DNA of 64,000 nt from Myxococcota bacterium (GCA_036012755.1 DASCPX010000087.1:32702-96701), one strand, 5' to 3'. Positions 21,781 through 37,683 are shown, counted from the first letter of the stretch. Notes: generated by a model not told the origin, from the letters alone. Translations and numbers: made by a program.

Positions 21781-22046
21781 AGTCCATCGAAGACTGCCGG
21801 AGCTGCGGGGCCTGCTGTCACCTGGGCTTCCACCGCGTCGAGGTCGAGGAGGACGAGGGCATCCCCGAGTGCGCGGTGGACGACTTCGGGCGCCATCTCC
21901 CGCGGCCGAACGGGAGCTGCGTCCACCTCGAGCAGCCCGAGCACAGCTGCCGGATCTACGAGCAGCGCCCTCGCAGCTGCCGGGACTTCGTCATCGGAGG
22001 GCCCGCCTGTCTGGAGGCTAGAAGTCGAGCCAGTGTGGACTGCTGA
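21768..22046 (+). CDS. YkgJ-family (CxxCxxCC) cysteine-cluster protein
   Basis: DCRSCGACC...CVHL...CRIYEQRPRSCRDF. Confidence 0.88.
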   Translation: MAQLKSIEDCRSCGACCHLGFHRVEVEEDEGIPECAVDDFGRHLPRPNGSCVHLEQPEHSCRIYEQRPRSCRDFVIGGPACLEARSRASVDC

Positions 22047-23841
22047 CGGCCCAGTCCTCGCCGCGCAGCACCACCACGAGCCACCGCTCGGCGCTCACCC
22101 GGTGCCAGCCGGCGCCGCTGGCGACGAGACCTCCATCAGCCCACAGCTCGGCGTCCACCGAGAGGTAGACCCGGTAGCCAGGGGTCGGCAGGGTGGCTTC
22201 CTGGACTTCCCACGAGAAGTACGGCCCAGTGGTGGCGAGGCTCTGGCCGGTCACGAGCCCGCGCTCCATGGCGGCCACCGAGGGGAGACCCGCAGAGGTG
22301 TCCGCGGGAGTCCAGGTCAGCGGCCCCGCGACCCCCACCCGCAGTCCCTGGTCCAACAAGCCGAAGTAGGTGTCGAGGTCGTCGAGGGATTCCAACAACA
22401 GCAGGTCCGGATCCTCGGGCCACAGCGCCGAGTTTCCAGCAGCCTCCACCCACGTCGCGTCGACGACGAGGACGCGGTTCGGCGAGTCGTAGCCGTCGGC
22501 GACCGCGAGCAAATCGCTGGCGTCGAGCCCCTCCCAGCGTACGGCGCCGTGCCCGGCTCGCTTGTCGTTGGCGGACCAGGGCCAGGACCAGACCCGGCCG
22601 ACATCAGCGGTGAGCGCCAGCGAGCCCACCCTGACCCGGGCCTCTCGGCTCGTCCAGTCCGACTGGTAGGGCCGGCCGATCTCGTCCGGGGGGGCCTGGA
22701 CGATGAAGTCGATGCCCCCTGCCGCGGCGATCTCGATGTCCTCGTTCTGCTCCACGCGCGAGACCCGCGAGGGGAAGGGGGCGCGAAACAGGTCCGCCAG
22801 CACGAGGTCTCCTGGCACGAGGCGCTCGAGCACGACCTCCAGCGAGACGCTTCCCGAGACCTCGACGGTCTCGGACCACTCGGTGTACCCGGGGCCGTGG
22901 TGGACGCGCACCTCGAAGGTCCCCTCCCCCGTCGGCACCGCCGCGCGGCGAGTGACGGGGGTCTCCTCGTCGCCGACCTCTACGACGACGGGGAGCTCGT
23001 GGCCCTGCTCGTCGACGGCGCGCACGAGGAGCTCACCGAAGCCCCCGAGGGGCAGGGTGAGCCCCTCGCCGACGACAACGGGATCTCCGTCGGTGTAGCC
23101 GCTGGACCGGCAGACCAGGGTCTGGGAGGACTCCGGGACGACGGCGTCGAACTCGGGGGCCAGGATGGCCACGCGCTCGCCGGCGCCGTCGAGCACGTCG
23201 ACCTGGTCGCCCTCGCAGGAGCCCGAGACAGGATGGGTGTAGAGCTCGCGCCGGACCTCGTCCCAGGGTCCGACGAGGACCCGCGTGACGCCGTCGATCC
23301 GCTGGGCGCCACCGAGGTCCTCGACGAGCACACCGTCCGTGCCGTAGAGCAGGTCTCCGCGCACGAAGTCGGAGCCCAGGGCGAGCGAGCGCCGGTCCCC
23401 GTGCAGCCACAGTCCGTCGGCGCCGGAGACCTCGAGCCAGGGCACGTCGGGGGGCAGCGTCCAGCGCACTGATCCGACCTGGATGAAGTCCTCGCCCAGC
23501 TCGGTCTCGACCCCTTGGTTCCAGCCCCCGTCTACGACCGGCACCGCCTCCCAGAGCCGATCCCAGTCCCCGACCGGGGCGAAGTCGACGAGGCTGCCGC
23601 CAGGAGCGCCCAAGACCGTGAGCGACTCGCTGGGAGAGCGGATGACGGCGGTGACCATCGAGTTCTGCATGACCCAGTCGCCACGACGCGCGTCGCCACT
23701 TCCGGGTCCTTCGTCATCGCAGCGCCAGGCCTTGACCCTGACCTCGCCCTGGCCCAGCACGACCGGGTCGCAGCCGGCGACCAGGCCGGTGTCGACAGCC
23801 CCGGGGGGAGCGCAGCCGACCAGGGCCGACAGCAGGCTCAG
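22018..23841 (-). CDS. Exported CehA/McbA-like PHP-fold protein with degenerate metal sites
   Basis: GDWVMQNS..AVI, GGSLVD, VHHGPGY, ADLFRA..AAAGGIDFIV, ATTGPY patterns; LVGC lipobox near 23810. Start uncertain (CTG overlapping the upstream stop assumed). Confidence 0.6.
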   Translation of the reverse strand: MSLLSALVGCAPPGAVDTGLVAGCDPVVLGQGEVRVKAWRCDDEGPGSGDARRGDWVMQNSMVTAVIRSPSESLTVLGAPGGSLVDFAPVGDWDRLWEAVPVVDGGWNQGVETELGEDFIQVGSVRWTLPPDVPWLEVSGADGLWLHGDRRSLALGSDFVRGDLLYGTDGVLVEDLGGAQRIDGVTRVLVGPWDEVRRELYTHPVSGSCEGDQVDVLDGAGERVAILAPEFDAVVPESSQTLVCRSSGYTDGDPVVVGEGLTLPLGGFGELLVRAVDEQGHELPVVVEVGDEETPVTRRAAVPTGEGTFEVRVHHGPGYTEWSETVEVSGSVSLEVVLERLVPGDLVLADLFRAPFPSRVSRVEQNEDIEIAAAGGIDFIVQAPPDEIGRPYQSDWTSREARVRVGSLALTADVGRVWSWPWSANDKRAGHGAVRWEGLDASDLLAVADGYDSPNRVLVVDATWVEAAGNSALWPEDPDLLLLESLDDLDTYFGLLDQGLRVGVAGPLTWTPADTSAGLPSVAAMERGLVTGQSLATTGPYFSWEVQEATLPTPGYRVYLSVDAELWADGGLVASGAGWHRVSAERWLVVVLRGEDWAVSSPHWLDF

Positions 23842-24590
23842 TCCCCCTCGAAGGTGACCGAGATGGGCACGAGCCGCGCTTTCTTGGACCACCCTACGGC
23901 TTCGGGAGCCATGTCCGTGTACCAGTAGGCGCGCGTCTCGCCAGGCTTGACCGGGACCTTCCACTCTTCCTCGATGGGCATGTTGCCGGGAGCCTGCGGA
24001 GCCACCAGCGGCCAGCGGTCCTTGTCGATCACGTTGCCCTCGATGTCGAGGTACTGCAGCTCCATGTTGAGCGTCGTGATGGTCCTGGTGCCCGTGTTCG
24101 TGACCTCTGAGGTGAAGAGGTAGCCGTCGAGGGCCCCATCGGGGTCCTCTGCGAGGTTCACGGGCTCGATCTCGACCCGCCCGATCTCGAGCTGGTCGAC
24201 GTATGCGTTCATGGCGACCCGGCGGCGGGCCTCCTGCTTGCGCTTCTTGCTGCCCTTCGGGTACTCATCGAGCCAGGTCTGCCAGGCCTCGACGGAGTTG
24301 CTGTCCTCGGCCCAGGCGTAGAGGAACTCCTCCCGCTCCTCGACGGCGATCTCGGCGAGCTGGGACTTGGGGTTGCCCTGGTACATCTCGAGGTAGTGGT
24401 CGTAGGCCTCGAGGGTCTTGTCCTTCCGAGCCTTCTCCAGGTACAGCTCCTCGAGGCGGATCTCCGCCATCGTGATGCTGGGGCTGTTGGGCGCGGCCTG
24501 GATGAAGGCCTCGTAGGCCTCGATCGAGTCGGCCTTCTGGACCTCGTGGAAGGAGGGGCCACAGGCGAGCAGGGCAAGGAGCGCGAGCAT
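23838..24590 (-). CDS. Hypothetical lipoprotein (helical repeats plus C-terminal Ig-like/FxLYD-like domain)
   Basis: LLAC lipobox; repeated SIEAYEAF/TLEAYDHY/SVEAWQTW; EVTNTG...LQYLDIEGNVID..VKPGET. Confidence 0.75.
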   Translation of the reverse strand: MLALLALLACGPSFHEVQKADSIEAYEAFIQAAPNSPSITMAEIRLEELYLEKARKDKTLEAYDHYLEMYQGNPKSQLAEIAVEEREEFLYAWAEDSNSVEAWQTWLDEYPKGSKKRKQEARRRVAMNAYVDQLEIGRVEIEPVNLAEDPDGALDGYLFTSEVTNTGTRTITTLNMELQYLDIEGNVIDKDRWPLVAPQAPGNMPIEEEWKVPVKPGETRAYWYTDMAPEAVGWSKKARLVPISVTFEGD

Positions 24591-24614
24591 CGTTCTCTCC
24601 GGCGAGAAGAGCGA

Positions 24615-25337
24615 CTAACCGGCCAGCGTCGCCACGATGAGCACGACGACGAGCGCGACCTGCTGCGCGGCCCCGAGCACATCTCCGGTGAGCCCACCGA
24701 TTCGGCGCCGGGCGTGCCAGGAGATCAGCCCGCTGGTGCCGGTGACGGCGAGCAGGGCCGGAAAGAACCACCAGCCGAGACACCAGAGCCCGATGATCCC
24801 CGAGAACAGCCAGGCGAGAGCCAGGCCCTTGCCGCTGAGGCGACCGCCCATGCGAGCGAGGAGGCCGTCTTCACGAGCAGGTCGGGCGGATGCCACCAAG
24901 GTGGTGAGCACGGCCCTGGAGACGACATGGGCGACGATCAGCCCAGAAGCGCCGGTGAGCGCGGAGACCGCTCCGACCTGCAACAGCAGCGAGAGCACGA
25001 CCGCGACCACGCCGTAGGTCCCGAGCATCGAGTCCCGCAGGATGCGCAGCTGGCGCTCGGCGTCCCCGCCCGCTCCGAAGGCGTCAGCGGTGTCGGCGAG
25101 GCCATCGATGTGGAGGGCACCGGTGAGGAAGACCCCGGCTGTGACGGTGAGGGTGGCCCCGAGCCACGCTGGCAGGCCACCGAAGATCCACCACACAACG
25201 GCCAGGATCAGCCCGACTCCCAGCCCCACCAGCGGGTAGAAGGGCGCGCCGCGCCGGAGATCCTCGTCGGTGATGTCCCCGTACACGGGCACCGGCACGC
25301 GGGTGAGCACGACGATGGCGACGATCAAGGCACGCAC
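24615..25337 (-). CDS. cobS: Adenosylcobinamide-GDP ribazoletransferase (cobalamin synthase)
   Basis: LTRVP, FYPLVG, TGALHIDGLADTADA, RDSMLGTYG, GGLTGDVLGA. Confidence 0.93.
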   Translation of the reverse strand: MRALIVAIVVLTRVPVPVYGDITDEDLRRGAPFYPLVGLGVGLILAVVWWIFGGLPAWLGATLTVTAGVFLTGALHIDGLADTADAFGAGGDAERQLRILRDSMLGTYGVVAVVLSLLLQVGAVSALTGASGLIVAHVVSRAVLTTLVASARPAREDGLLARMGGRLSGKGLALAWLFSGIIGLWCLGWWFFPALLAVTGTSGLISWHARRRIGGLTGDVLGAAQQVALVVVLIVATLAG

Positions 25338-25350
25338 GAGACCGAGGCTA

Positions 25351-25971
25351 CTACTCCTCGTCGAGGACCTCGACCAAGCGGTCCCGAACCCGAAGCACGA
25401 AGCGGTCCCAGCGCTGCCCGGGCCCGTGGCCGAGCAGCCTCTGGAGCCCGGCTTCCTGCTCCGGAGCAGTGGGGAGCCTGGCGATCGATCCGAGCTCCTC
25501 CAGCGCATCCACAAACGGCATGCTGAGCGCGTGGCCGAGCGTCTTGGACAGCGGGTGACAGAAGTGCTTCAACACCGCGAGGCGCTGGGCGGCGTAGGCC
25601 GTGTAGGCCGGCGGGAGCTCGCCCAGGCGGGGCACGAGCACCCTCGCAGAGTTCTCGACCCGCTCCCAAGGATCGTAGCGGCGCCTGCCGTCGACGATCG
25701 GTGGGTACAGGGTCCTGCGGCGTGCTGCCTTTCTCGCGAGGGTGTTGAACCTCTTGAGCAGGGCTGCCTTGCAATAGGCCTTCGGAGCGTCGATGCCCCC
25801 CTTGGCAAGGGCCTCCGACAGTGGCTTGCAGGTGTCCTGGACGAGCTGGTCGGCCAGCTGGGTGCTGATCGATCGCGCCTCTCGGAAGAGCAGCGGGCGC
25901 AGAGCGGACGCAATGGGGGCGGCCTCACCAGAGGCGTGGAGCTTTCGGATGGCATGCCAGCCCGCGTCCAT
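25351..25971 (-). CDS. ECF sigma-factor region-2-like protein
   Basis: LRPLLFREAR...ADQLVQDT...KAYCKAALLKRFNTLARK resembles sigma2 (AEDLVQET..F.AWL..IARN...R); region 4 not clearly recognisable. Confidence 0.5.
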   Translation of the reverse strand: MDAGWHAIRKLHASGEAAPIASALRPLLFREARSISTQLADQLVQDTCKPLSEALAKGGIDAPKAYCKAALLKRFNTLARKAARRRTLYPPIVDGRRRYDPWERVENSARVLVPRLGELPPAYTAYAAQRLAVLKHFCHPLSKTLGHALSMPFVDALEELGSIARLPTAPEQEAGLQRLLGHGPGQRWDRFVLRVRDRLVEVLDEE

Positions 25972-26044
25972 TACAATAGTCTTACCTGCTCGACCTGACA
26001 CTACACGGTCGCCAGCCCTCCAGCAACAAACTACCGAATATCGC

Positions 26045-29000
26045 TTGCAACAGTTGGTCGCTCCAGTGTTCGTCTCCCAGGTCGCGGCAGCCATGGCTGC
26101 TCACGGCGATCCGAAGATCGCCGAGCGGTATGCGCCCGGAGGGGCGCGCCTTGCCCACTACGAACGCGTCGCCTCTTCGCTGCTGCGGAGGCTCGGGGGA
26201 GACGCCGGGATGGCAGGGCTCCTGCACGGCTGCCCGGACGATCTGCCCGAGGCGGTCGAGGCTGCGATCTCGCCAGGAGCTCGCGGGATCCTCCGCGACT
26301 ACGAGCGCCTCCGCGCGCCCTTCCTGTCTCCCGACTCGATCCCTGGCCTCGGGCGTCGCATGATCGAGGAGATGCTCCCCGAGGTGAGGCGGCCAGAGGC
26401 CATCGCCCTCCTCCTCTGCGAGCAGCGCGACCACCTCGACCCCACCGGAGAGCTGACCGGGTGGCTCGTCGCCATGCACCGAGAGCCGGAGCTCGTCTGT
26501 GAGCTCCCTCCACGCGGCCTCGTGCCGATGGTGCGCGAGTTCTCGCTTCACCTCGAGTACGCCGAGGTGGGTCTCTGTCCACTGGCGGAGGAGCTGGGGC
26601 TGTTCTTCGACCGCAACCGGCTCGATGATCTCGTACTCCTCCATCGTGATCCGGATCGGGCCCGGAGGATTCGCCAGTTCGTCGCCGACCAGGCAGGACC
26701 GGGCGGACTCGCCGCGCGGGGAGCGGAGAAAGTCCGAAACCTGTTCCTCGCCTCGGAGAAGGCCCGCGAGTCCATCCTGAGCTGCAACTGGGAGTGGCGG
26801 CACCTCGGGCGTCTCTCTCGCGTGCTGGGCCCTGACGAGACCGGCTGGGAGAGGCAGCTCCGCCTCTGCGGCTTCGTGACCATCAAGTGCAGCGGCAAGA
26901 GCGCCGCATACCGTGCGCTCGGAGCCCTTCATCAGCTCCGACGCTGCGACCCCAGCGCCTTTCGGGACTACATCTCCGCCAAGCGCATCAGCCAGTACCG
27001 CGCCATCCACACGGCGATCGCGGTCCCGGAGATCGGCGTGGACGGGCCCTTTCCGGTGCGGCTGCTCGCGAGCCAGAGCGCCGAGTCCCGCTACCACGAG
27101 GTCGGGCCGGACGACCTCGGGCAGATCCGCCCGAGGTTGGGACCGCAGCGCTCCGACGCCGACCGCTTCACCGCCTACACCCCGGCAGGAGAGGTGAAGC
27201 GACTGCCCCACGGGGCGGCGGTCCTCAACTTCGCCCTGGAGGTCCACCGGAGCTGGGTCTGCCTGGTCGATCACGCCGTCGTCGCCGGCGAGCACCGAGG
27301 TCTCCTCGACCCCGTCCACGAGGGCGAGGCCGTCGATCTCGTCCTGTTGCCGCAGCCCAGGCCCCTGCCCAAGGGCTGGAAGAAGGCGACCCCCCAGAGC
27401 ACCCACGCGGCGATCAAGGCCGGAGCCCGGCGCGCGATGCACGAGCAGCGCCACAAGCAAGGACTGGACTGGGTCGCCATGAAGCTGCAGGAGTCGGGCA
27501 TCGAGGTGGCCCGCGAACGCATAGAGGACTTCGTCGCGGAGGCCGCACGCCAGGCCGCTGCTCGGGAGAAGCTCATCTCGAGCAAAGGAAGCAAGGGGTC
27601 CCCGGGCGGCTGGTGGCTGCGCCAGATCGGGATCCTCCAAGCCCATCGACAGGGAGAACCCACCTACACGAAGGTCGCGATCCAGGAGCATCACCTCGAC
27701 GTACTGCTGCGGACGCTTTGCCGGATCACGGGGACGGTGCTCGACCTGGACTTCGACGCCGAGCTCCGCCTGGGCACCGAGCGCTTCGTCGACTGCGCCC
27801 GCTGCGTTCCCGATCGGGACGGTCCCCTGGCTGTCGTCCGGAGTGGCAAGGAGCTGCGGTTCCACCGGGCAGGCGCCCCCTGCGCTGCAGGCGCCAGCGA
27901 GGTCCGGACGGTGCGCTGGGCGGTCGCACGCCACTACGTCTTGATCGAGGGGAGCAACCGGAAGGGGCTGTTCCGCGATGTCCTCGACGACGTGCGGGAC
28001 CTCGAGCTGGACGTGATCGACTTCGTCGGCCGCCGCTTCGGGCGCAACTGGGCCGTCGCCCGGCTCGAGCTGGACTGCAACGACAGGCGCGTGCTCGACG
28101 AGCTCGTCCGCCACCTGCAGCGCGTCAGGGGTGTCACGCGAGTGCTCCTGGACGAGCGAGACCCCTTCCTGGAGAACGGCCTGCCCGATCGCCTGGAGGA
28201 CAACCAGCTCCCGGGAGCGGGGGTCCGGGGCAACCCCTACGTACGCGGCGGACCGGTCTACCGGGACGAGAAGTTCTATGGACGAGAGCTGGAGTTCCAC
28301 ACGCTCCTCGGGCTCCTCGCCGATGTCCGCCAAGGCGGCCAGATGGCCTGCATCGAGGGGCCGCTGAAGGTCGGAAAGACCTCGCTGGCGCACCGGGTGC
28401 TCAGAGAGGTCAGCCGCCACGCGGACCTCTGGATCCCGGTCTACTACACGACACCCCACGGGACGTCGTGGTCCAGCCGGTACCGGGCTCCGGGAGTGGA
28501 TCTCCCCCCCGCCCGAGACGCCATCGCAGAGCTCCTGGCGCGCTCGGCGGCAGAGGCGGTCCGTCGCCGTGGACTCACCAGCAGCGTGCCCGAGTACGAC
28601 TCACTCGACGACCTCCTGAAGAAGCTGCTGCAGTGGCCAGAGCGCCCGCGCATCGTCCTGGTCATCGACGAGGCCGCGCGCCTTGCGCTGAACTCGGTCG
28701 AGGAGCTGTCCGCTCGAAAGGAGAGCAACACGGGCATCGAGAAGCGAATCGAGGAGGGCCAGCGGGACATCACGCTCGCCGAGCTGGAGCTCCGACCCTC
28801 TGCCAGGCCTGACGCCGACGACCTGGCGCGCTTCGCCCAGAGCGTGGTCTCCAAGCCCGGGCTGGCGGTGATCTGGGTCGGTCCCACGCCTTCGTTCGCG
28901 TCGATCCCCAGCGGCCTCTCGCTGCGTCACGAGCTCTACACGTCCGTTCGACGGATCCCTCTCGGCGCCTTCGGGATCACCGAGGTCGGCCTGCTTCTGT

Positions 29001-29437
29001 CAGCGAAGAAGCTGCGTCCAGCCTCACCGATCCGCTTCCTCGACATCACGCTCCAGGACGTGCACCGGCTCACCGGTGGTGACCCCCTGTTCGTCGGCGC
29101 CATCGCGGACGAGCTGTGGAGTGGTCGACCGGAGGAGGGCTCGCTGGAGTACAGCCCCGAGATGGTGGCGCGCGCTGCCGATCGTGTCCGGAGATTCGGC
29201 TACGAGCTGGACTGCCGGATCGGGCAGTTCGGTCCCCTGCGCCTGCTCGGGCAACAGCTGCTCCAGGGGATGGTGGAGCGCCCCCATCGACCGACAGATC
29301 GGCTCGACGGAGTCGCACCAGACCTGCACCGACACCTCCTCGACATGCTCTGCATGGCCGGTCTCGCCGTCGTCGACGAGGACGAAGACCATCGGCTTGC
29401 CGCACCCCTGATGAAAAAGTACTTGGGGGCGCTGTGA
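26045..29437 (+). CDS. Fusion of degenerate long RelA/SpoT homologue (HD-SYNTH-TGS-ZFD-ACT) and STAND-type NTPase
   Basis: AAH..H..VA..L..AGLLHG (HD-like); PLAEELG..LDDL; YRALGALH..FRDYIS..YRAIHT (SYNTH-like); YTPAGEVKRLPHGAAVLNFALEVH (TGS); CARCVP..FHRA..C (ZFD); NRKGLFRDV..LQRVRGVTRV (ACT); NPYVRGGPV..FYGRE, GPLKVGKT, VLVIDEA, TGGDP (STAND). Start is TTG 26045, GTG 26066 or ATG 26093. Confidence 0.85.
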   Translation: MQQLVAPVFVSQVAAAMAAHGDPKIAERYAPGGARLAHYERVASSLLRRLGGDAGMAGLLHGCPDDLPEAVEAAISPGARGILRDYERLRAPFLSPDSIPGLGRRMIEEMLPEVRRPEAIALLLCEQRDHLDPTGELTGWLVAMHREPELVCELPPRGLVPMVREFSLHLEYAEVGLCPLAEELGLFFDRNRLDDLVLLHRDPDRARRIRQFVADQAGPGGLAARGAEKVRNLFLASEKARESILSCNWEWRHLGRLSRVLGPDETGWERQLRLCGFVTIKCSGKSAAYRALGALHQLRRCDPSAFRDYISAKRISQYRAIHTAIAVPEIGVDGPFPVRLLASQSAESRYHEVGPDDLGQIRPRLGPQRSDADRFTAYTPAGEVKRLPHGAAVLNFALEVHRSWVCLVDHAVVAGEHRGLLDPVHEGEAVDLVLLPQPRPLPKGWKKATPQSTHAAIKAGARRAMHEQRHKQGLDWVAMKLQESGIEVARERIEDFVAEAARQAAAREKLISSKGSKGSPGGWWLRQIGILQAHRQGEPTYTKVAIQEHHLDVLLRTLCRITGTVLDLDFDAELRLGTERFVDCARCVPDRDGPLAVVRSGKELRFHRAGAPCAAGASEVRTVRWAVARHYVLIEGSNRKGLFRDVLDDVRDLELDVIDFVGRRFGRNWAVARLELDCNDRRVLDELVRHLQRVRGVTRVLLDERDPFLENGLPDRLEDNQLPGAGVRGNPYVRGGPVYRDEKFYGRELEFHTLLGLLADVRQGGQMACIEGPLKVGKTSLAHRVLREVSRHADLWIPVYYTTPHGTSWSSRYRAPGVDLPPARDAIAELLARSAAEAVRRRGLTSSVPEYDSLDDLLKKLLQWPERPRIVLVIDEAARLALNSVEELSARKESNTGIEKRIEEGQRDITLAELELRPSARPDADDLARFAQSVVSKPGLAVIWVGPTPSFASIPSGLSLRHELYTSVRRIPLGAFGITEVGLLLSAKKLRPASPIRFLDITLQDVHRLTGGDPLFVGAIADELWSGRPEEGSLEYSPEMVARAADRVRRFGYELDCRIGQFGPLRLLGQQLLQGMVERPHRPTDRLDGVAPDLHRHLLDMLCMAGLAVVDEDEDHRLAAPLMKKYLGAL

Positions 29438-30606
29438 CCAACGACCTGCCAGCCTACGAGCCCTACGACCTGCGCACGCGTGAGCTCCGGGATCACCTCG
29501 AACACGAGCGGCTGATGCTGCTCTTCGGCCCCCGCCGGTTCGGCAAGTCACTCATGCTGGACCGGCTCGCAGAGGGCACCGGCATGAAGAAGGTGCGGGT
29601 CGAGGGGCGTCACGGAGGCGTGCCTCCCCTCCCCGACGAACCGGTCACGATCCTGGTAGACGACATGGACTACCTGGTCGCGGGGTCCGGAGGGGCAGCT
29701 CTGGACTCGCTGATCTCGCAGGTGTTCACGAACCCGAAGCACCGACTGGTCGCCACGAGCGGGACGCCGCGCCGTGAGCTCGCTCGCGACCTGGACTCGA
29801 GCTGTGCTTCCTGCTCGGCGCTGCTGATGAACCACTCCCGCTTCCTCGTGCCCTGGTCCGTGGGCTGGGAGCGCCACATCGACGAGGCCTTCCCCGCAGA
29901 CTGGGGTGGCGCCGTGGCTCGGGTGACCGGTGGCTACCCCGAGCTCGTGAACATCTGTCGGAGCGTGGTGTGGACGGCGGACCGCGAGGGGTTCCAGGAC
30001 GAGGGCGAGCGGGACGCGGCCGTGCTCGCCATGCTGCAGAAGAGGTCACCGGCGATCACCTCCATGGACCGACTGCTCCGGCGACTGGACGAGCACCACC
30101 CCGCGGCCTGGGCCGCACTCCAGCGGACCGTCGAGGGCTCGAAGCGCAGCCCCCACGAGGAGTACGTGTCCGCGTGGGTGGCCCATGGCCTCGCCATCGA
30201 CGGCGGTCTTGGCGATGCCGTCATCGCTCCTGGGGCCTACCTGCGCTGGCGCATCCCGCACTACGAGCCGCTCGAGCGCGAGATCACCGACAACGCCCCC
30301 TTCAGCCTCGTGCCAGAGGGACCTTCATCGGGCAAGGCGGTGATCAGCGGGCCGGGCGGCGACACGCGCACGGTGAAGCTGCGCAAGAAGAAGTGGCAGC
30401 TCGTCCAGGTGCTCCACGAGCACCGGAGCTTCATGTCCGGTGCCCAGCTGCGCGACATCCTGGACCTGGACACGGACGCCGGGCTGCGTTCCCTGGTGGC
30501 GCGCACACGCAAGACCTTCAGCGACCAGCGCGTCGAGGGTGTGATCCTCAACCGCTACGGTGGCGGCTTCGGCCTGGGCGAGCCGCGCCTGCGCCCCAAG
30601 GGCTGA
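29434..30606 (+). CDS. Compact STAND-like P-loop NTPase with C-terminal OmpR-type winged HTH
   Basis: Walker A GPRRFGKS, Walker B ILVDDMD, TGGYPEL; C-terminal VKLRKKKWQLVQVL...LRSLVARTRK..ILNRYGGGF; GTGA overlap with the upstream stop. Confidence 0.75.
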   Translation: MTNDLPAYEPYDLRTRELRDHLEHERLMLLFGPRRFGKSLMLDRLAEGTGMKKVRVEGRHGGVPPLPDEPVTILVDDMDYLVAGSGGAALDSLISQVFTNPKHRLVATSGTPRRELARDLDSSCASCSALLMNHSRFLVPWSVGWERHIDEAFPADWGGAVARVTGGYPELVNICRSVVWTADREGFQDEGERDAAVLAMLQKRSPAITSMDRLLRRLDEHHPAAWAALQRTVEGSKRSPHEEYVSAWVAHGLAIDGGLGDAVIAPGAYLRWRIPHYEPLEREITDNAPFSLVPEGPSSGKAVISGPGGDTRTVKLRKKKWQLVQVLHEHRSFMSGAQLRDILDLDTDAGLRSLVARTRKTFSDQRVEGVILNRYGGGFGLGEPRLRPKG

Positions 30607-30607
30607 G

Positions 30608-31090
30608 TCACCCCGGGGCAGGCAGCAGGACCCACTGCGAGGCCTGCACGGCCAGCCAGACCGGACGCATGGGGTCCTCGCAGAGGGGTGGAGCTTTTGC
30701 GAGCAGGGCCTGGGCGTCCTCGGCGTAGGGAGCGAAGCGCTCCGGGAGGGCCACCACCGCGCGACGAGCGAGGTCGAACTCCAGCGCGTGGGCGTCGGTC
30801 CAACCAAGGAAGCTCAGGGCAGCGGCCACGCTGTCGAGGTTCTCCAGGATTCTCCGGGCGTCGCCTGTCCGTAGGCCGTCGACCAGGGCGCCCGGGTCGA
30901 GGCCGTCTCGGGCATCGGCGACCGTCTCGCCGTGAGCTTCACGCCACGCAACAGCCTCGAGGACCAGCGGGTCGTCGGCTTCAAACCGGGCCAGAAAGCC
31001 AGCGGCTTCCGCGATTCGGAGGGCGTTGTCGCCCTCCGCCAGTGCTACCCCGAGGCAGTCGCGGAGCTCCTCCTGGTCACGGCGAATCAC
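30608..31090 (-). CDS. Hypothetical helical protein
   Basis: GTG at 31090 with AGGAG upstream; Ala/Leu/acidic helical composition; converges on the upstream gene with a 1-bp gap. Confidence 0.65.
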   Translation of the reverse strand: MIRRDQEELRDCLGVALAEGDNALRIAEAAGFLARFEADDPLVLEAVAWREAHGETVADARDGLDPGALVDGLRTGDARRILENLDSVAAALSFLGWTDAHALEFDLARRAVVALPERFAPYAEDAQALLAKAPPLCEDPMRPVWLAVQASQWVLLPAPG

Positions 31091-31245
31091 GGCATCTCCT
31101 GAAACAAGGATATGACGGGCCGCGCGGACCGTGACGTACAGGGGGGGTTCAAGTCGCTCGAATCCTGTGATTACGCAGGGTTGTATCGACAGGTGTCGAG
31201 ATCCGGCCCTCATGACGTCCTGGGAATCCTCACGAAGGAGTCCCA

Positions 31246-32409
31246 GTGCAGCCCCAGAACCCCATCCTCGACTCCCTCCGCGACAACTCCGACCACCTGG
31301 AAGACCTCGCGGACATCTACTTCCCTGACCAGCCGCTGGAGGTGTCCGTGTTCCTTCGCGAGGTCTTCGAGCGCGCTCGGAGGCAGCTGCTGGAGCACTC
31401 AGAGGTCGGCGGCGACCTGGAGGGCGCAGTCCGCGTCACCTTCCTCGGCCAGGGGCTGCTCGTCTATGCCGCCGCCTGTTGCGCCCAGCAGGCGGCCCGC
31501 CGCGACGCGACCGGAGACCGGGGGGACGCGGACCACGACGCCTACCTCGCCCTCGAGAAGCAGGTCAGGGCCGGGAAGACCATGAGCATCCTCGACCACC
31601 CGCGACGCAACCTGTCGGGCTACCTCTCCCGGATCTCCAGGAACGTGCACGGCTGGGCGGCGATGGCGAGACCGGACGAGGTGCAGTGGGACGACAACCA
31701 CCAGGTCGTCGAAGCCGATGTGTGCGACCCGCCGGAGACCGAGGACCGCGACGCCCTGGCCGGCTTCGTCTCGGCCTTCTTCGAGGACCCCGAGCGCCTG
31801 CGCGGCCAGAACCCGGAGCTCTGCCGCGAGATCTGCACGGGGGTTCGCCTGAGCCTGGAGACGTCCTTTCCCACATTCGACGAGGCGCGGGAGGTGTACC
31901 TGAGCCTGCTGTCGCGGGACCCGATCAGCGCACGAGCCATCTCACCCGAGCTCGCCGACGCGGCTCTGGCGACCATCGAGCGCATGGACGCGGCCGCCGA
32001 GCCCTTGTGGGGTCGGCTCTACGACGCTCTCCCACACGCCCACACCTGCAAGGCCACGCGAGGGGCGGTCTGGAAGCGGCAGGTCGGAGTCGCCCGAGCC
32101 TGGCTGGATGGATGGCGTCGTGGTCACGAGCCGACCGCACGCGAGCAGGCCGCCGCGGCCGGTTGGCGCTCACCCAAGACCGTCCACAGGATCAGGACCG
32201 CGCTGGTCCGCGCCGCCGGGTTCCACCCCGAGACCGTGCACGCCATGGCTCGCCAGCTCGCCGTCGAGCGCCGGAGGCCTACAGCACGGTGGCCACGAGC
32301 GAGACCAGCCCTTGATGATCAGCCGGCACGTAGCCCTCGACCGGCTGGGTGTCGTAGGTCATCTTGTAGCTCAGCTTCACGCTCATCGCGGCGGTCAGCT
32401 CGTTCGTGA
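31246..32409 (+). CDS. Putative regulator: sigma2-like region plus LexA-like HTH
   Basis: AAGGAG RBS before GTG; DADHDAYLAL..NLSGYLSRISRN (sigma2-like); GHEPTAREQAAAAGWRSPKTVHRIRTAL (LexA N-terminal wHTH-like). The 3' end overlaps the convergent gene by ~130 nt. Confidence 0.6.
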   Translation: MQPQNPILDSLRDNSDHLEDLADIYFPDQPLEVSVFLREVFERARRQLLEHSEVGGDLEGAVRVTFLGQGLLVYAAACCAQQAARRDATGDRGDADHDAYLALEKQVRAGKTMSILDHPRRNLSGYLSRISRNVHGWAAMARPDEVQWDDNHQVVEADVCDPPETEDRDALAGFVSAFFEDPERLRGQNPELCREICTGVRLSLETSFPTFDEAREVYLSLLSRDPISARAISPELADAALATIERMDAAAEPLWGRLYDALPHAHTCKATRGAVWKRQVGVARAWLDGWRRGHEPTAREQAAAAGWRSPKTVHRIRTALVRAAGFHPETVHAMARQLAVERRRPTARWPRARPALDDQPARSPRPAGCRRSSCSSASRSSRRSARS

Positions 32410-35450: not shown

Positions 35451-36680
35451 TCAGGTCTCGGAGATGTCAGCCTCTGTGCGGGGGCAGAGCTTCCACTCGC
35501 TGTAGCTGTAGTTGATGACGCCGGTGACGTCGTAGGTCGTGCCGACATCCGGAGCGACGGTGAAGAAGAGGTCGTCGATGTTCAGACCGTCCCAGGAGGT
35601 CTCGAACTCGCCGAACTCACCAGCGGCCGTGACCTCGAGACCCTCGATGGTGACCAGGACGCCCTCGTAGGCCTCCCAGTCGGCAGGGGCGCTCGCCAGG
35701 GTCTCTGCGCTGATCGTGACGCTGTCGCCGCCCCACTCGATGCCCACGTCCTTGAGCTCCGTGAGGTCGTAGTACTCGTCGACCGTGGCGTCGAGCTTGG
35801 CGATGGTGGCGCCCACCGTGACCGTCTCGGAGAAGCCGGGCTCGTAGACATAGATGCCGTTCCAAGCGCCGGCGGCGTCAGCGATCCAGAAGCCCTTGAT
35901 CTCGCCGTCGTAGCTGTAGGTCGGGGTGGTCACGAAGGCGTTCTCGACGGTGATCGTCGAGCCGCTCGCGACCGTTCCGTCCTGGATGTCGGAGATCGTG
36001 ACGATCTCGCCGCCGCCGGAGCCGGCGACGTAGCCCTCGAGATCGGCCGCGTCCCGGGGGTTGAGCTTCCACTCGGAGTAGTTGTAGGCCAGCGGACCGA
36101 TGACGTTCGTCCAGGTGGCGCCTGCCTCTCCGGAGTAGTCGAAGAGCAGGTTGTCGAGCTTCAAGCCGTTGTCGAGCTCGATCTCGCCGTAGCTGTTGAT
36201 GCCGCTGGTGGCCGTAGCGGAGCCGATCGCGATGAGCGTGGACTCCCAGGGCTCGAAGTCGGTGACGCTGCCGACATCGACGCTGTCGACGGTGAGCGTG
36301 CCATTGCCCGTGACCTCGATGGCGGAGTCGTCGGAGACCGACAGCTCGGTCCAGTCGTAGAACTCGGAGACCGAGCCGGTGACCGTGATCTCGTCGCCGG
36401 GCTCGAGGTAGGGGACGCCGGACTGCATGTAGACGAAGATCCCGGACCACTCGCCGCCGCCGGGGCTCTGGATGAAGAAGCCGTCGTCCTCCTGGCTGGC
36501 AGGGCTGGAGACGAGCACGCCGGAGAGCGTCACCGTCTCGCCGTCGGCGATCGTGCCGTCCTGGATGTCGGCGATGGAGGGGCCACCGTCGTTGTTGTTG
36601 CCCGGTCCTTCGCCGGTGTCGTCGTCGCCGCCGCCGGGGCCGAGGTTGCAGCCCATGACCAACAGGGTGATGAGGCTCAT
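35451..36680 (-). CDS. Acidic lipoprotein with two tandem OB-fold-like modules
   Basis: VMGC lipobox; duplicated module IADIQDGT..GFFIQ..WSGIFVY..GSVSEFY..TEL..E..L...YNYSEWKLNPR, resembling accessory domains of extracellular nucleases. Confidence 0.75.
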   Translation of the reverse strand: MSLITLLVMGCNLGPGGGDDDTGEGPGNNNDGGPSIADIQDGTIADGETVTLSGVLVSSPASQEDDGFFIQSPGGGEWSGIFVYMQSGVPYLEPGDEITVTGSVSEFYDWTELSVSDDSAIEVTGNGTLTVDSVDVGSVTDFEPWESTLIAIGSATATSGINSYGEIELDNGLKLDNLLFDYSGEAGATWTNVIGPLAYNYSEWKLNPRDAADLEGYVAGSGGGEIVTISDIQDGTVASGSTITVENAFVTTPTYSYDGEIKGFWIADAAGAWNGIYVYEPGFSETVTVGATIAKLDATVDEYYDLTELKDVGIEWGGDSVTISAETLASAPADWEAYEGVLVTIEGLEVTAAGEFGEFETSWDGLNIDDLFFTVAPDVGTTYDVTGVINYSYSEWKLCPRTEADISET

Positions 36681-36768
36681 CGCATTCTCTCCAGGTGCAC
36701 AGAAGACCCGCAAATACATGCGGCTCCTCGCACCCGCAAGGGAATGCCCGAGAAAGGAGCGTGCCAAC

Positions 36769-37683
36769 ATGGCCACAGGGCAGGCCGCGCTGGAAGTCAA
36801 GGGACTCCGCCGCAGCTTCGGGACCCGCATCGCGGTGAACGATCTCGATCTCCATGTCACCGAGGGCAGCGTCTACGGCTTCCTAGGTCCCAACGGCGCC
36901 GGCAAGACCACGGCGATGCGCTGCATCCTGGGCCTGATCCGCAGCGACGCGGGTGACGTCGCCATCTTCGGGGACACCAACCCGGTCTCCCGGAGACGCC
37001 ACGTGGGCTCGCTGGTCGAGACGCCGCGCTTCTACGACTGGATGAGCGGCCGTCAGAACCTCGACGTCGCAGCCGCCTACGCCAACGCGCCTGTCGACCG
37101 GATCCAGCCAGCGCTGGAGCGGGTCGGCCTGCGCGAACGGGCCGACGACAAGGTCCAGGGCTACTCCCTCGGCATGAAGCAGCGCCTCGGCATTGCGCGG
37201 GCCCTGCTCGCCAAGCCCCGGCTCCTGTTGCTCGACGAGCCCACCAACGGCCTCGACCCGCAGGGCATGAAGGACGTGCGCGAGCTCATCAAGACCCTCG
37301 CCACGGAAGAGGCCATCACGATCTTCATCAGCTCGCATCTGCTGTGGGAGATCCAGGCGGTGGCCACCCGGGTCGGCATCATCGAGAACGGCAAGCTCAT
37401 CGCCGAGGGGGACGTCGCCGAGCTCCTCGCTGGCGGAGACGTGGTCGAGGTCGAGGTCGGCAGCCCTGACATCGACGCCCTGATCGCCGCCGCCGCCGGG
37501 CTCGAGGGTGTCGCACACGTCGGCCCCGGTTCCCACGGCGAGGTCTTCGCGGCAGAGGGCCTCGACGCCGCCGGTCTCAACGCACAGCTCGTCGCCGCGG
37601 GCGTGCGGGTCTCCTCGCTCGAGACCCGAGGGCGCACGCTCGAGGACCTCTTCCTCTCCATCACGAAGGCGGAGATCACCTGA
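36769..37683 (+). CDS. ABC transporter ATP-binding protein (ABC-2/BcrA-like)
   Basis: GPNGAGKTT, YSLGMKQRL, LLLDEPTNGLD, SSH. Confidence 0.95.
   Translation: MATGQAALEVKGLRRSFGTRIAVNDLDLHVTEGSVYGFLGPNGAGKTTAMRCILGLIRSDAGDVAIFGDTNPVSRRRHVGSLVETPRFYDWMSGRQNLDVAAAYANAPVDRIQPALERVGLRERADDKVQGYSLGMKQRLGIARALLAKPRLLLLDEPTNGLDPQGMKDVRELIKTLATEEAITIFISSHLLWEIQAVATRVGIIENGKLIAEGDVAELLAGGDVVEVEVGSPDIDALIAAAAGLEGVAHVGPGSHGEVFAAEGLDAAGLNAQLVAAGVRVSSLETRGRTLEDLFLSITKAEIT

Follow-up and report, generated by a model that had tools for sequence, protein, structure and literature searches.

A long RSH scaffold predicted to lack (p)ppGpp chemistry, fused to a STAND-type NTPase and encoded next to a putative transcription-factor protein

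Introduction

A stretch of 64,000 nucleotides from a Myxococcota bacterium (GCA_036012755.1 DASCPX010000087.1:32702-96701), referred to here as the window, carries two adjoining genes, A and B, that encode an unusual pair of NTPases. Protein A combines a whole long RelA/SpoT homologue (RSH), in which the acidic residues of both catalytic centres have been lost, with a C-terminal module of the STAND type (signal-transducing ATPases with numerous domains). Protein B is a second STAND-like NTPase and appears to end in a winged helix of the OmpR/PhoB type. We hold it to be an even call that A and B form a two-protein STAND unit, in which an RSH-scaffold sensor is paired with a transcription-factor protein.

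The RSH-derived part of protein A

The first 690 residues of protein A are collinear with long RSH proteins, from the HD domain through to the ACT/RRM domain, which bears out the domain order proposed in an earlier note on this DNA. The NCBIfam model TIGR00691 (spoT_relA) aligns collinearly over positions 363–685 with residues 459–784 of P0001 (E 1.4e-14), and positions 167–314 of the SpoT model NF008303, which take in the synthetase domain together with the last part of the HD domain, align with residues 262–413 of the same protein. A family profile of 70 sequences matches ribosome-bound E. coli RelA (5iqr_8) at E 7.6e-52, with profile positions 159–697 aligned to RelA 164–737, and matches 18 more chains of Rel, RelA, SpoT, TGS-domain and small-synthetase proteins. 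The match of Pfam RelA_SpoT is partial and, at 23.8 bits, falls short of the cut-off (27). The HD assignment is backed by the conserved histidines, and HD_4 is found above cut-off in the relatives P0128–P0138; the ACT/RRM domain is supported by the extension of TIGR00691 to position 685 of 687 and by the alignment of the family profile up to RelA residue 737.

The fate of the catalytic residues was followed in 106 full-length family members aligned with four canonical Rel sequences, including the one of this genome; the roles of these residues are presumably those known from Rel structures. In the hydrolase-like domain, the first His (89/106) and the His of the HD dyad (85/106) are retained. 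The Asp of the dyad is replaced by Gly in 75 rows and by Ala in 12 (87/106 for the two), the ED pair is a gap in 102/106, the Asp of KLAD is Glu in 68 and Asp in 20 of the 106, and the Asn of RLHN is His in 60 and Arg in 27. In the synthetase-like domain, RxK has turned into ExR/H inside a conserved WEWRH motif (Arg to Glu in 80/106 rows), the column of the Mg-binding Asp is a gap in 98/106, and the Glu of ExQIRT has given way to R, P, A, S, K or T, with no Glu among these six commonest residues (88/106 rows). Other synthetase residues are retained, namely the Asp of KDYI (98 of 106), the stacking Tyr (99), the His (90) and the Thr (98) and the Arg of QIRT (89), and W233, W235 and H237 each occur in 80% or more of the rows. 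Protein A of the window follows the family pattern, with LLHG, no ED and a Pro at the Glu position of ExQIRT. The replacement of catalytic residues in both centres, claimed earlier for this one protein, is thus seen in it directly, as are the features said to be retained: FRDYI at residue 290 and YRAIHT at residue 302 (nt 26960–27013), together with the TGS His. The latter, His385 (27245–27247), aligns with His432 of E. coli RelA, which is required for recognition of the deacylated CCA end of tRNA, and is a His in 68/106 rows. In the zinc-finger domain (ZFD), retention is high for the second Cys (103 of 106), the Pro (95), the His (103) and the third Cys (99), and C568 and C571 are each conserved in 80% or more of the rows; of the RSH ‘CC’ pair, the first Cys has been lost.

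Conservation was also measured in mean bits per column over 107 rows, one of them a canonical Rel. The TGS domain is the most conserved (2.11) and the helical domain the least (1.32), with 1.75 for ACT, 1.61 for the ZFD, 1.56 for the pseudo-HD domain, 1.69 for the pseudo-synthetase domain and 1.62 for the NTPase. Since the two pseudo-enzymatic domains match the NTPase in this respect, the N-terminal half is under a constraint like that of the ATPase. To judge from the alignment, the loss of catalytic residues is a family-wide property and not decay, and it is a sound prediction that protein A neither synthesises nor hydrolyses (p)ppGpp (guanosine tetra- and pentaphosphate). The term ‘catalytically dead’ in the earlier note holds for the missing residues; it goes too far if it is meant as loss of any function, as the altered pockets are themselves conserved and ligand binding or a changed chemistry may remain. 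With a TIGR00691 score of 53.4 bits against a family cut-off of 499.2, and with failure of both catalytic tests, protein A should not be classed as a Rel/RelA/SpoT enzyme.

The NTPase module of protein A

The C-terminal module is recognised by Pfam AAA_16 (46.3 bits against a cut-off of 32.6, E 8.9e-12), and AAA_22 and ATPase_2 match protein A as well; among less degenerate relatives, nSTAND1, nSTAND2 and AAA_35 are matched. Five residues, G761, K762, D859, E860 and G996, are invariant across 70 sequences, and T994, G996 and P998 of the GxP motif are conserved. An AlphaFold2 (AF2) model of residues 690–1114, built with 66 sequences, has a mean predicted local distance difference test (pLDDT) of 88.8 and a predicted template modelling score (pTM) of 0.89, and displays a three-part nucleotide-binding oligomerisation domain (NOD). 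The STAND-type NTPase with Walker A, Walker B, GxP motif and terminal winged helix, as first described from motifs, is therefore borne out by profile, model and structural matches, and all motif positions given earlier were found where they had been placed.

The top Foldseek matches of the NOD model are 2qen, archaeal ORC1 and 2fna. Exhaustive structural alignment against 48,161 chains ranks 2qen_A (Z 23.2, 326 residues) and 2fna_B (Z 22.6, 314 residues) first; after a clear gap follow plant nucleotide-binding leucine-rich repeat proteins (NLRs; Z 17.3 and 17.1), archaeal ORC2 (17.1) and ORC/Cdc6 proteins (14–16), and further matches include Avs5 (14.7), MalT (14.5), NLRC4 (13.8), CED-4 (13.2) and Avs3 (12.4). 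Because ORC/Cdc6 AAA+ proteins score about as high as NLRs (Z 14–17), the NOD is best described, as far as the model can tell, as an ATPase_2/AAA_16-like switch on the line between STAND proteins and AAA+ proteins that resemble ORC. The winged helix is the C-terminal end of protein A and the RSH scaffold is its only other part; the same-chain sensor repeats and the effector usual in STAND proteins are absent from it, and the output domain sits on protein B.

The partner gene B

Gene B starts at a GTG that shares bases with the TGA stop of gene A (ctGTGAcc), a G-rich stretch lies immediately 5' of this GTG, and in the window the two genes are, by this arrangement, predicted to be translationally coupled. 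The earlier note treated gene A as standing alone, which does not hold: gene B lies directly downstream of it on the same strand, overlapping or abutting, in 10/10 loci. Nine loci were first compared, namely the window, five other Myxococcota lineages (three close kin among them) and a metagenome-assembled genome (MAG) of Gemmatimonas, and in these protein B measures 390–550 aa. The tenth locus, G660, has a short form of gene A and a B homologue downstream of it (hidden Markov model (HMM) E 3e-18). Because three of the ten loci are close kin, they stand for about seven independent lineages from two phyla. Protein B of the window aligns over residues 25–382 with a profile built from its eight counterparts (98.8% probability in hhalign, E 1.1e-16). 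Walker A is present in 7/9 B proteins, Walker B reads LLIDDxDH, and G-x-P is invariant within GG(H/Y)P. A word-index search with B returned B itself and P0154 only.

The AF2 model of the window's protein B (9 sequences) has a mean pLDDT of 74.9; residues 291–390 lie mostly at 86–92, and at 72–79 in three 10-residue blocks. Residues 2–280 resemble the NB-ARC module of plant NLRs (Z 14.2 and 14.0), 2qen (13.1) and CED-4 (12.0). Residues 287–385 resemble VanR (7lza_A: Z 11.2, root-mean-square deviation 1.9 Å over 85 residues) and also AdeR, GlnR, VicR and ArlR. Pfam Trans_reg_C (PF00486) is found at the C-terminus of five of the nine B proteins, in one of them above cut-off (L015, 30 bits against 26.2). 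On the model, protein B would thus consist of a STAND-like NOD followed, at the C-terminus, by a winged helix of the OmpR type, and would have no sensor domain. Descent of B from a recent duplication of the ATPase of A was considered and rejected: hhalign aligns only 27 columns at the GxP motif, with a probability of 34%. Prediction of an A–B complex scored 0.00 against a mark of 0.32, which is evidence neither way. The coordinates of both genes are collected in Table 1.

Table 1. Coordinates of genes A and B, their parts and the candidate promoter, in the numbering of the window.
Feature	Position	Strand	Remarks
Candidate sigma-70-like promoter	25949–25977	+	ATGGCA-17-TACAAT, about 115 nt 5' of gene A; consensus match only
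Gene A, pseudo-RSH and STAND-type NTPase fusion	26093–29437	+	1114 aa (P0002); Pfam, NCBIfam, family search
Pseudo-HD (hydrolase-like) domain, residues 1–160	26093–26572	+	LLHG at residue 43 (26219–26230); ED deleted
Pseudo-synthetase domain, residues 161–345	26573–27127	+	WEWRH at 26789–26803 in place of RxKH; both catalytic acidic residues absent
TGS domain, residues 361–417	27173–27343	+	Pfam TGS 25.2 bits, cut-off 22.2
Helical domain, residues 430–555	27380–27757	+	WWLxQ(I/L)G motif; collinear with the helical region of RelA
ZFD, conserved-cysteine domain, residues 560–605	27770–27907	+	CxxC..H..C; Cys/His at residues 568–597 (27794–27883)
ACT/RRM domain, residues 618–684	27944–28144	+	Pfam ACT_4 weak, E 0.0085
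Conserved linker before FYGRE, residues 689–725	28157–28267	+	LPxR..PY..G; 6/35 columns with one residue in at least 80% of rows
NPY..FYGRE	from 28232	+	
STAND-type NOD, residues 727–1114	28271–29434	+	NTPase, helical domain, winged helix; AAA_16, AF2 model
Walker A of A	28358–28381	+	GPLKVGKT
Walker B of A	28658–28672	+	VLVIDE; IDE at 28664–28672
GxP motif of A	29072–29086	+	TGGDP
Gene B	29434–30606	+	390 aa; STAND-like NTPase, residues 1–280, and OmpR/PhoB-type winged helix, 287–385
Walker A of B	29527–29550	+	
OmpR/PhoB-type DNA-binding domain of B, residues 287–385	30292–30588	+	predicted fold

Gene boundaries and integrity of the fusion

The plus-strand frame around gene A is open from 25778/25793 to 29437, and GC content at third codon positions (GC3) reaches coding level only from about 26090 onwards (genome 68–70% GC). 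As a public copy with an identical protein of 1114 aa (P0002) begins at the ATG at 26093, the gene is taken to span 26093–29437; of the span 26045–29437 proposed earlier, the end stands and the start moves downstream. Its GC content (0.68–0.70) is that of its surroundings. An assembly artefact can be dismissed as the origin of the fusion of the RSH part and the ATPase: among the 150 best library representatives, 116 measure 1000–1320 aa, and in nearly all of these a Walker A occurs some 750–800 residues in. A stop or mis-assembly between the ACT domain and the ATPase, raised at first as a possible flaw, was found neither in the contigs nor in the relatives, which share the fusion. Contigs from runs of two studies, possibly the source of this DNA, cover 26000–30700 with 0 differences and 0 gaps, and a short contig from a third study (hydrothermal vent) bridges the A/B junction exactly. 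In the low-depth runs X7 and X9, positions 28041–28668 are uncovered, which is a hole in sparse contigs only.

The candidate promoter of Table 1 is the sole promoter-like site within 25300–31400 (shuffled sequences: mean 0.2). A terminator scan found just two weak sites, both within gene A, which is roughly what chance would give; no Rfam match, and so no riboswitch or leader, was found over 24000–32000 at E up to 0.1; and the region upstream of gene A contains two short two-copy repeats and one palindrome, from which no operator could be called. Divergent from gene A, a minus-strand open reading frame (ORF) of 206 aa (25351–25971) has coding-like GC3 and is matched by no Pfam family; it runs into the region where the CobS ORF (24615–25514/25568) starts. 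CCATGG at 26091–26096 provides an ATG on both strands and inflates this minus-strand ORF to 26094.

Family size, distribution and phylogeny

A two-sequence profile was searched against 1.84 billion representatives, and the full HMMER search yielded 128 proteins at E up to 1e-30. The family comprises more than 100 clusters at 50% identity from at least three phyla. It is visible only by such a full search, a word-index search with A having returned itself, P0003 and one canonical Rel; a profile search of genome contigs with the two-sequence alignment found the Gemmatimonas locus only. The ESM Atlas holds three clusters (87, 63 and 53 members) with the same Pfam combination under automatic names, and Chloroflexota is the commonest phylum among the few members with a record.

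Two checks proposed with the first description gave clear results. The first was for a canonical rel in the rest of this genome, which measures 6.7 Mb in 250 contigs and is 96% complete; one with 724 bits was found on another contig, which implies that A is not the housekeeping enzyme. The second, for the same fusion in other genomes, found carriers in two phyla. The fusion occurs in 8 of 401 sampled genomes of the window's phylum at E at most 1e-200, the next best match being canonical Rel at 1e-60, and in two of 301 genomes of Gemmatimonadota, the phylum of the Gemmatimonas MAG. Closer to the window, it is present in one of 40 relatives of the same order (G034, 33% identity to A), in none of 21 other genomes of the same family and in neither of two genomes of the same genus, one of them 73% complete. 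The partner protein of one carrier is labelled Myxococcales MAG. G660 (L056:1474-5228), one of the two Gemmatimonadota carriers, encodes a 763-aa form of A that starts at the TGS domain (family profile 377–1117) and is without the N-terminal half, and no gene for that half was found in the 1.4 kb upstream.

In a FastTree phylogeny of the TGS-to-ACT half, which included seven canonical sequences, many long branches and no bootstrap, the core family forms one clade of 120 rows (local support 100) on a long stem apart from canonical Rel. The clade comprises 104 long forms, 14 shorter ones and 2 others; the ‘short’ rows are scattered and may mostly be truncated metagenomic proteins, G660 alone having been verified in a genome. 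A second set, P0128–P0147 (11 representatives), matches HD_4, RelA_SpoT, TGS and ACT_4 above the Pfam cut-offs, retains the HD dyad in 7–8 of the 11 and has lost the synthetase Asp in all 11. Nine of these lie beside canonical Rel, with P0137 and P0141 inside the core clade, and the tree supports neither one nor two fusion events for the two sets. In P0111, P0114 and P0116 (1265–1304 aa), the TGS domain lies about 100–150 residues later, which points to extra sequence in or before the N-terminal half.

Proposed mechanism

The TGS-helical-ZFD-ACT half of RelA and Rel docks on the ribosome and reads deacylated A-site tRNA. In protein A, a long RSH scaffold that would have lost synthesis and degradation of (p)ppGpp may serve as the sensor arm of the C-terminal NTPase; it is this half that appears to be retained above all, along with part of the guanine-nucleotide pocket. 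The arm could respond to a starved ribosome or uncharged tRNA, or to an alarmone, nucleotide or amino acid. On such a signal the NTPase of A would exchange nucleotide and assemble with B, whose DNA-binding domains would then act on promoters, the outcome being a transcriptional answer to translational or nutritional stress without an alarmone made by A. A split STAND transcription factor is the simplest explanation because A has a sensor and a switch without an output, and B has a switch and an output without a sensor. The OmpR-type domain on B also bears on the idea of an NLR-like death switch raised in the earlier note, since it favours a transcriptional output instead. As for the cue, ribosome or tRNA would be favoured by the constancy of the RSH C-terminal half, the high conservation of TGS and the natural form without the N-terminal half, and the conserved Tyr/His loop with the new WEWRH motif leaves room for a nucleotide or alarmone. 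A more specific version is offered tentatively and is rather doubtful as it stands: the pair may be a (p)ppGpp-independent branch of the stringent response, in which a disarmed RelA on starved ribosomes, reading deacylated A-site tRNA through its TGS/ZFD/ACT half, would make no alarmone and would drive ATP-dependent co-assembly with the sensor-less B, which would then act at promoters.

Several observations weigh against a two-protein sensor and transcription-factor unit. The helical domain is the least conserved part of the scaffold, the TGS His is replaced in 38/106 rows and the first ZFD Cys is gone, so that docking on the ribosome in the manner of RelA is not assured; binding of ribosome, tRNA or nucleotide by A is a prediction from its sequence. 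Walker A and Walker B are degenerate in B of two of the nine loci, and the NTPase modules of A and B are not close paralogues. The DNA-binding domain of B is drawn from a model of moderate confidence (pLDDT 74.9) and from homology to other B proteins, and the window's own B has no Pfam Trans_reg_C match at E <1. No conserved target gene or operator was found. Finally, the sporadic distribution (8/401, 2/301 and 0/21 same-family genomes) is more typical of accessory or defence genes than of regulators belonging to the core genome.

Alternative explanations

The last point leads to the alternative that fares best, although we consider it unlikely: an anti-phage or conflict system of the Avs or bacterial-NLR type, in which A senses a phage-induced translation state or, as a decoy, a phage protein that targets Rel, and in which assembly of A with B shuts the cell down or turns on defence genes. 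RSH-derived proteins can act in defence, as CapRel does, and the STAND architecture, the self-contained two-gene cassette in varying chromosomal contexts and the matches of Avs5 (Z 14.7) and Avs3 (Z 12.4) to the NOD of A are all in keeping with this, as is the sporadic occurrence just mentioned, including absence from both same-genus genomes (0/2, one 73% complete). Neither A nor B, however, contains a nuclease, protease, TIR, SIR2, pore or other effector domain, and the sole output domain is the OmpR-type DNA binder. A PADLOC-DB 2.0 scan of protein A alone gave only mad8 (E 0.039, 11.5 bits), the flanks of 7 loci contain no defence, integrase or transposase genes, and the GC content of gene A does not differ from that of its surroundings. 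The decoy function suggested in the earlier note finds no support, given the lack of a PADLOC family for A, of defence or mobile genes in the flanks and of an effector domain.

Quite improbable is a neofunctionalised protein A, whose altered and conserved pockets (H..HG..E..H..D in the HD-like domain; WEWRH and the Tyr/His loop in the synthetase-like domain) would run another reaction, or bind or hydrolyse another nucleotide, with the ATPase and B regulating or reporting it. Three of the four Mn-ligand positions of Rel hydrolases are presumably kept in the family as H, H and E/D; there is a new conserved His and an Asp116; W233, W235 and H237 each occur in 80% or more of the rows; constraint on the N-terminal half equals that on the ATPase; and 7–8 of 11 less degenerate relatives still have the HD dyad. 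Both acidic residues that hold Mg in RSH synthetases have been lost family-wide, though, with ED deleted in 102/106 rows, and the natural form without the N-terminal half (G660) retains B, so that this half is not essential to the unit. Most doubtful of all is a ribosome-directed ATPase (for hibernation, rescue or sequestration of stalled ribosomes) with B merely autoregulating the operon, for although the conserved core is the ribosome-binding half of RSH, STAND/ORC-like NODs are switches and not unfoldases or motors, the best folds being ATPase_2, NLR and ORC, and a B protein with its own NOD in 10/10 loci exceeds the needs of an autoregulator.

Comparison with known systems

Protein A shares with Rel, RelA and SpoT (E. 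coli RelA, 5iqr, 5kps) the order of HD, synthetase, TGS, helical, ZFD and ACT/RRM domains, as well as the TGS His, the Cys/His of the ZFD and the Tyr/His guanine loop. It differs from them in lacking the acidic residues of both centres, in adding a 390-aa NTPase module and in being tied to B. E. coli RelA, too, is hydrolase-dead, and yet it is an active synthetase (Atkinson 2011).

Among published RSH-STAND fusions, the fungal NLR class RELA_SPOT-NACHT-WD40 (Dyrka et al. 2014, PMC4986451) comes nearest; it similarly places an RSH-derived domain N-terminal to a STAND NTPase. In the account given there, the fungal proteins contain a small synthetase domain only, read as an enzymatic effector, and WD40, ANK or TPR repeats as sensor; compared with that account, protein A has the whole disarmed long-RSH scaffold in the place of the sensor, no C-terminal repeats, and an AAA_16/ATPase_2 module instead of NACHT. 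In the vWA-MoxR-VMAP conflict systems (Kaur et al. 2020, PMC7159879), RSH-derived and TGS domains have likewise been drawn into NTP-dependent systems made up of several proteins in multicellular bacteria, the effector position being taken by a RelA nucleotidyltransferase or TGS domain. In the section of that paper concerned, these are single modules on the vWA protein and the NTPase is MoxR, whereas A is a complete long RSH on a STAND NOD.

In regulators of the MalT and Streptomyces antibiotic regulatory protein (SARP) type, ligand-triggered assembly activates transcription, and large SARPs such as AfsR combine an OmpR-type winged helix-turn-helix (wHTH) with BTAD, NB-ARC and TPR. These proteins, including MalT (8bob), whose NOD matches that of A (Z 14.5), likewise couple a STAND NOD to a DNA-binding domain. 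Protein B has in common with SARPs the OmpR-type wHTH, which is C-terminal in B and comes without BTAD or TPR; a further difference is that sensor and DNA-binding output are split over A and B and that the sensor is an RSH scaffold. The best folds for the NOD of A, the archaeal ATPase_2 (PF01637) proteins PABY2304 (2qen) and SSO1545 (2fna), have 15% identity to it, and 2qen is also matched by the family profile (E 4.4e-5); unlike A, they are stand-alone proteins of 350 aa and unknown role without an N-terminal sensor. Avs3, Avs5 and other bacterial NLR-like proteins resemble A in NOD fold (Z 12.4–14.7) and sporadic distribution, but Avs proteins consist of an N-terminal effector (nuclease, SIR2 or others), a NOD and a C-terminal repeat sensor, and A has no effector and falls in no PADLOC family.

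Full-text searches of the literature turned up no account of an ATPase joined to a long RSH. In Atkinson 2011, the terms ‘ATPase’, ‘AAA’ and ‘NTPase’ do not occur in the main text, and ‘P-loop’ appears there only within the title of a cited work; all four terms are absent from the main text of Jimmy 2020; the supplementary RSH lists of both may hold the family as ‘divergent’. As far as these main texts go, the architecture is absent from the described RSH classes, in agreement with the earlier note. We regard the pair as a STAND signalling system whose putative pseudoenzyme sensor is unprecedented and whose output is split, the domain combination itself being already in databases under automatic names.

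Genomic surroundings

Beyond the A–B pair, no neighbour is conserved between lineages. The pair is flanked in the window by CobS, amine oxidases, DUF481, a phosphoesterase and an ABC/RND (ATP-binding cassette/resistance-nodulation-division) efflux set; in Gemmatimonas by LeuRS, phosphoenolpyruvate carboxylase and a beta-lactamase-fold protein; in G136 by SerRS, serine dehydratase, a cation efflux protein and a histidine kinase; and at other loci by a sulfatase, PKD proteins and a Ser/Thr kinase. No integrase, transposase, restriction, nuclease, defence or toxin-like gene was found in the flanks of 7 loci. In G113, a 1435-aa protein with Ser/Thr kinase, AAA_16 and TPR parts (L050:12164-16471, minus strand), itself a signalling protein of the STAND type, adjoins the pair, a neighbour that is probably typical of Myxococcota genomes. 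Three further ORFs of the window, 22018–24264 (minus strand), 31216–32409 (plus) and 35451–36872 (minus), of 748, 397 and 473 aa stop to stop, have coding-like composition and match no Pfam family at E up to 1e-4.

At two loci from unrelated carriers (L015:3804-7730 and L052:4536-7372), the divergent genes 5' of A encode an aminoacyl-tRNA synthetase and an enzyme acting on the matching amino acid, in one case LeuRS with a weak match to Glu/Leu/Phe/Val dehydrogenase and in the other SerRS with the beta chain of serine dehydratase. Such neighbours are absent from the window and the other loci, and they may be due to chance or may hint that these genes are targets of the pair.

Significance

Long RSH enzymes are textbook sensors of amino-acid starvation, and to our knowledge (p)ppGpp is their only known output. 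In the family described here, selection has kept the whole sensor scaffold after both centres of catalysis were lost, and the scaffold is joined to a STAND switch and to a partner with a predicted DNA-binding fold; this looks like an undescribed route from a translation or starvation signal to gene regulation. If the scaffold reads ribosomes or tRNA, the pair would link translation status to transcription through protein alone, and would also provide a natural separation-of-function variant for ribosome sensing by the RSH C-terminal half. Binding of alarmones would make A a (p)ppGpp receptor of a new class, and if the pair is a defence system, it would contain the first STAND sensor built from a stringent-response factor.

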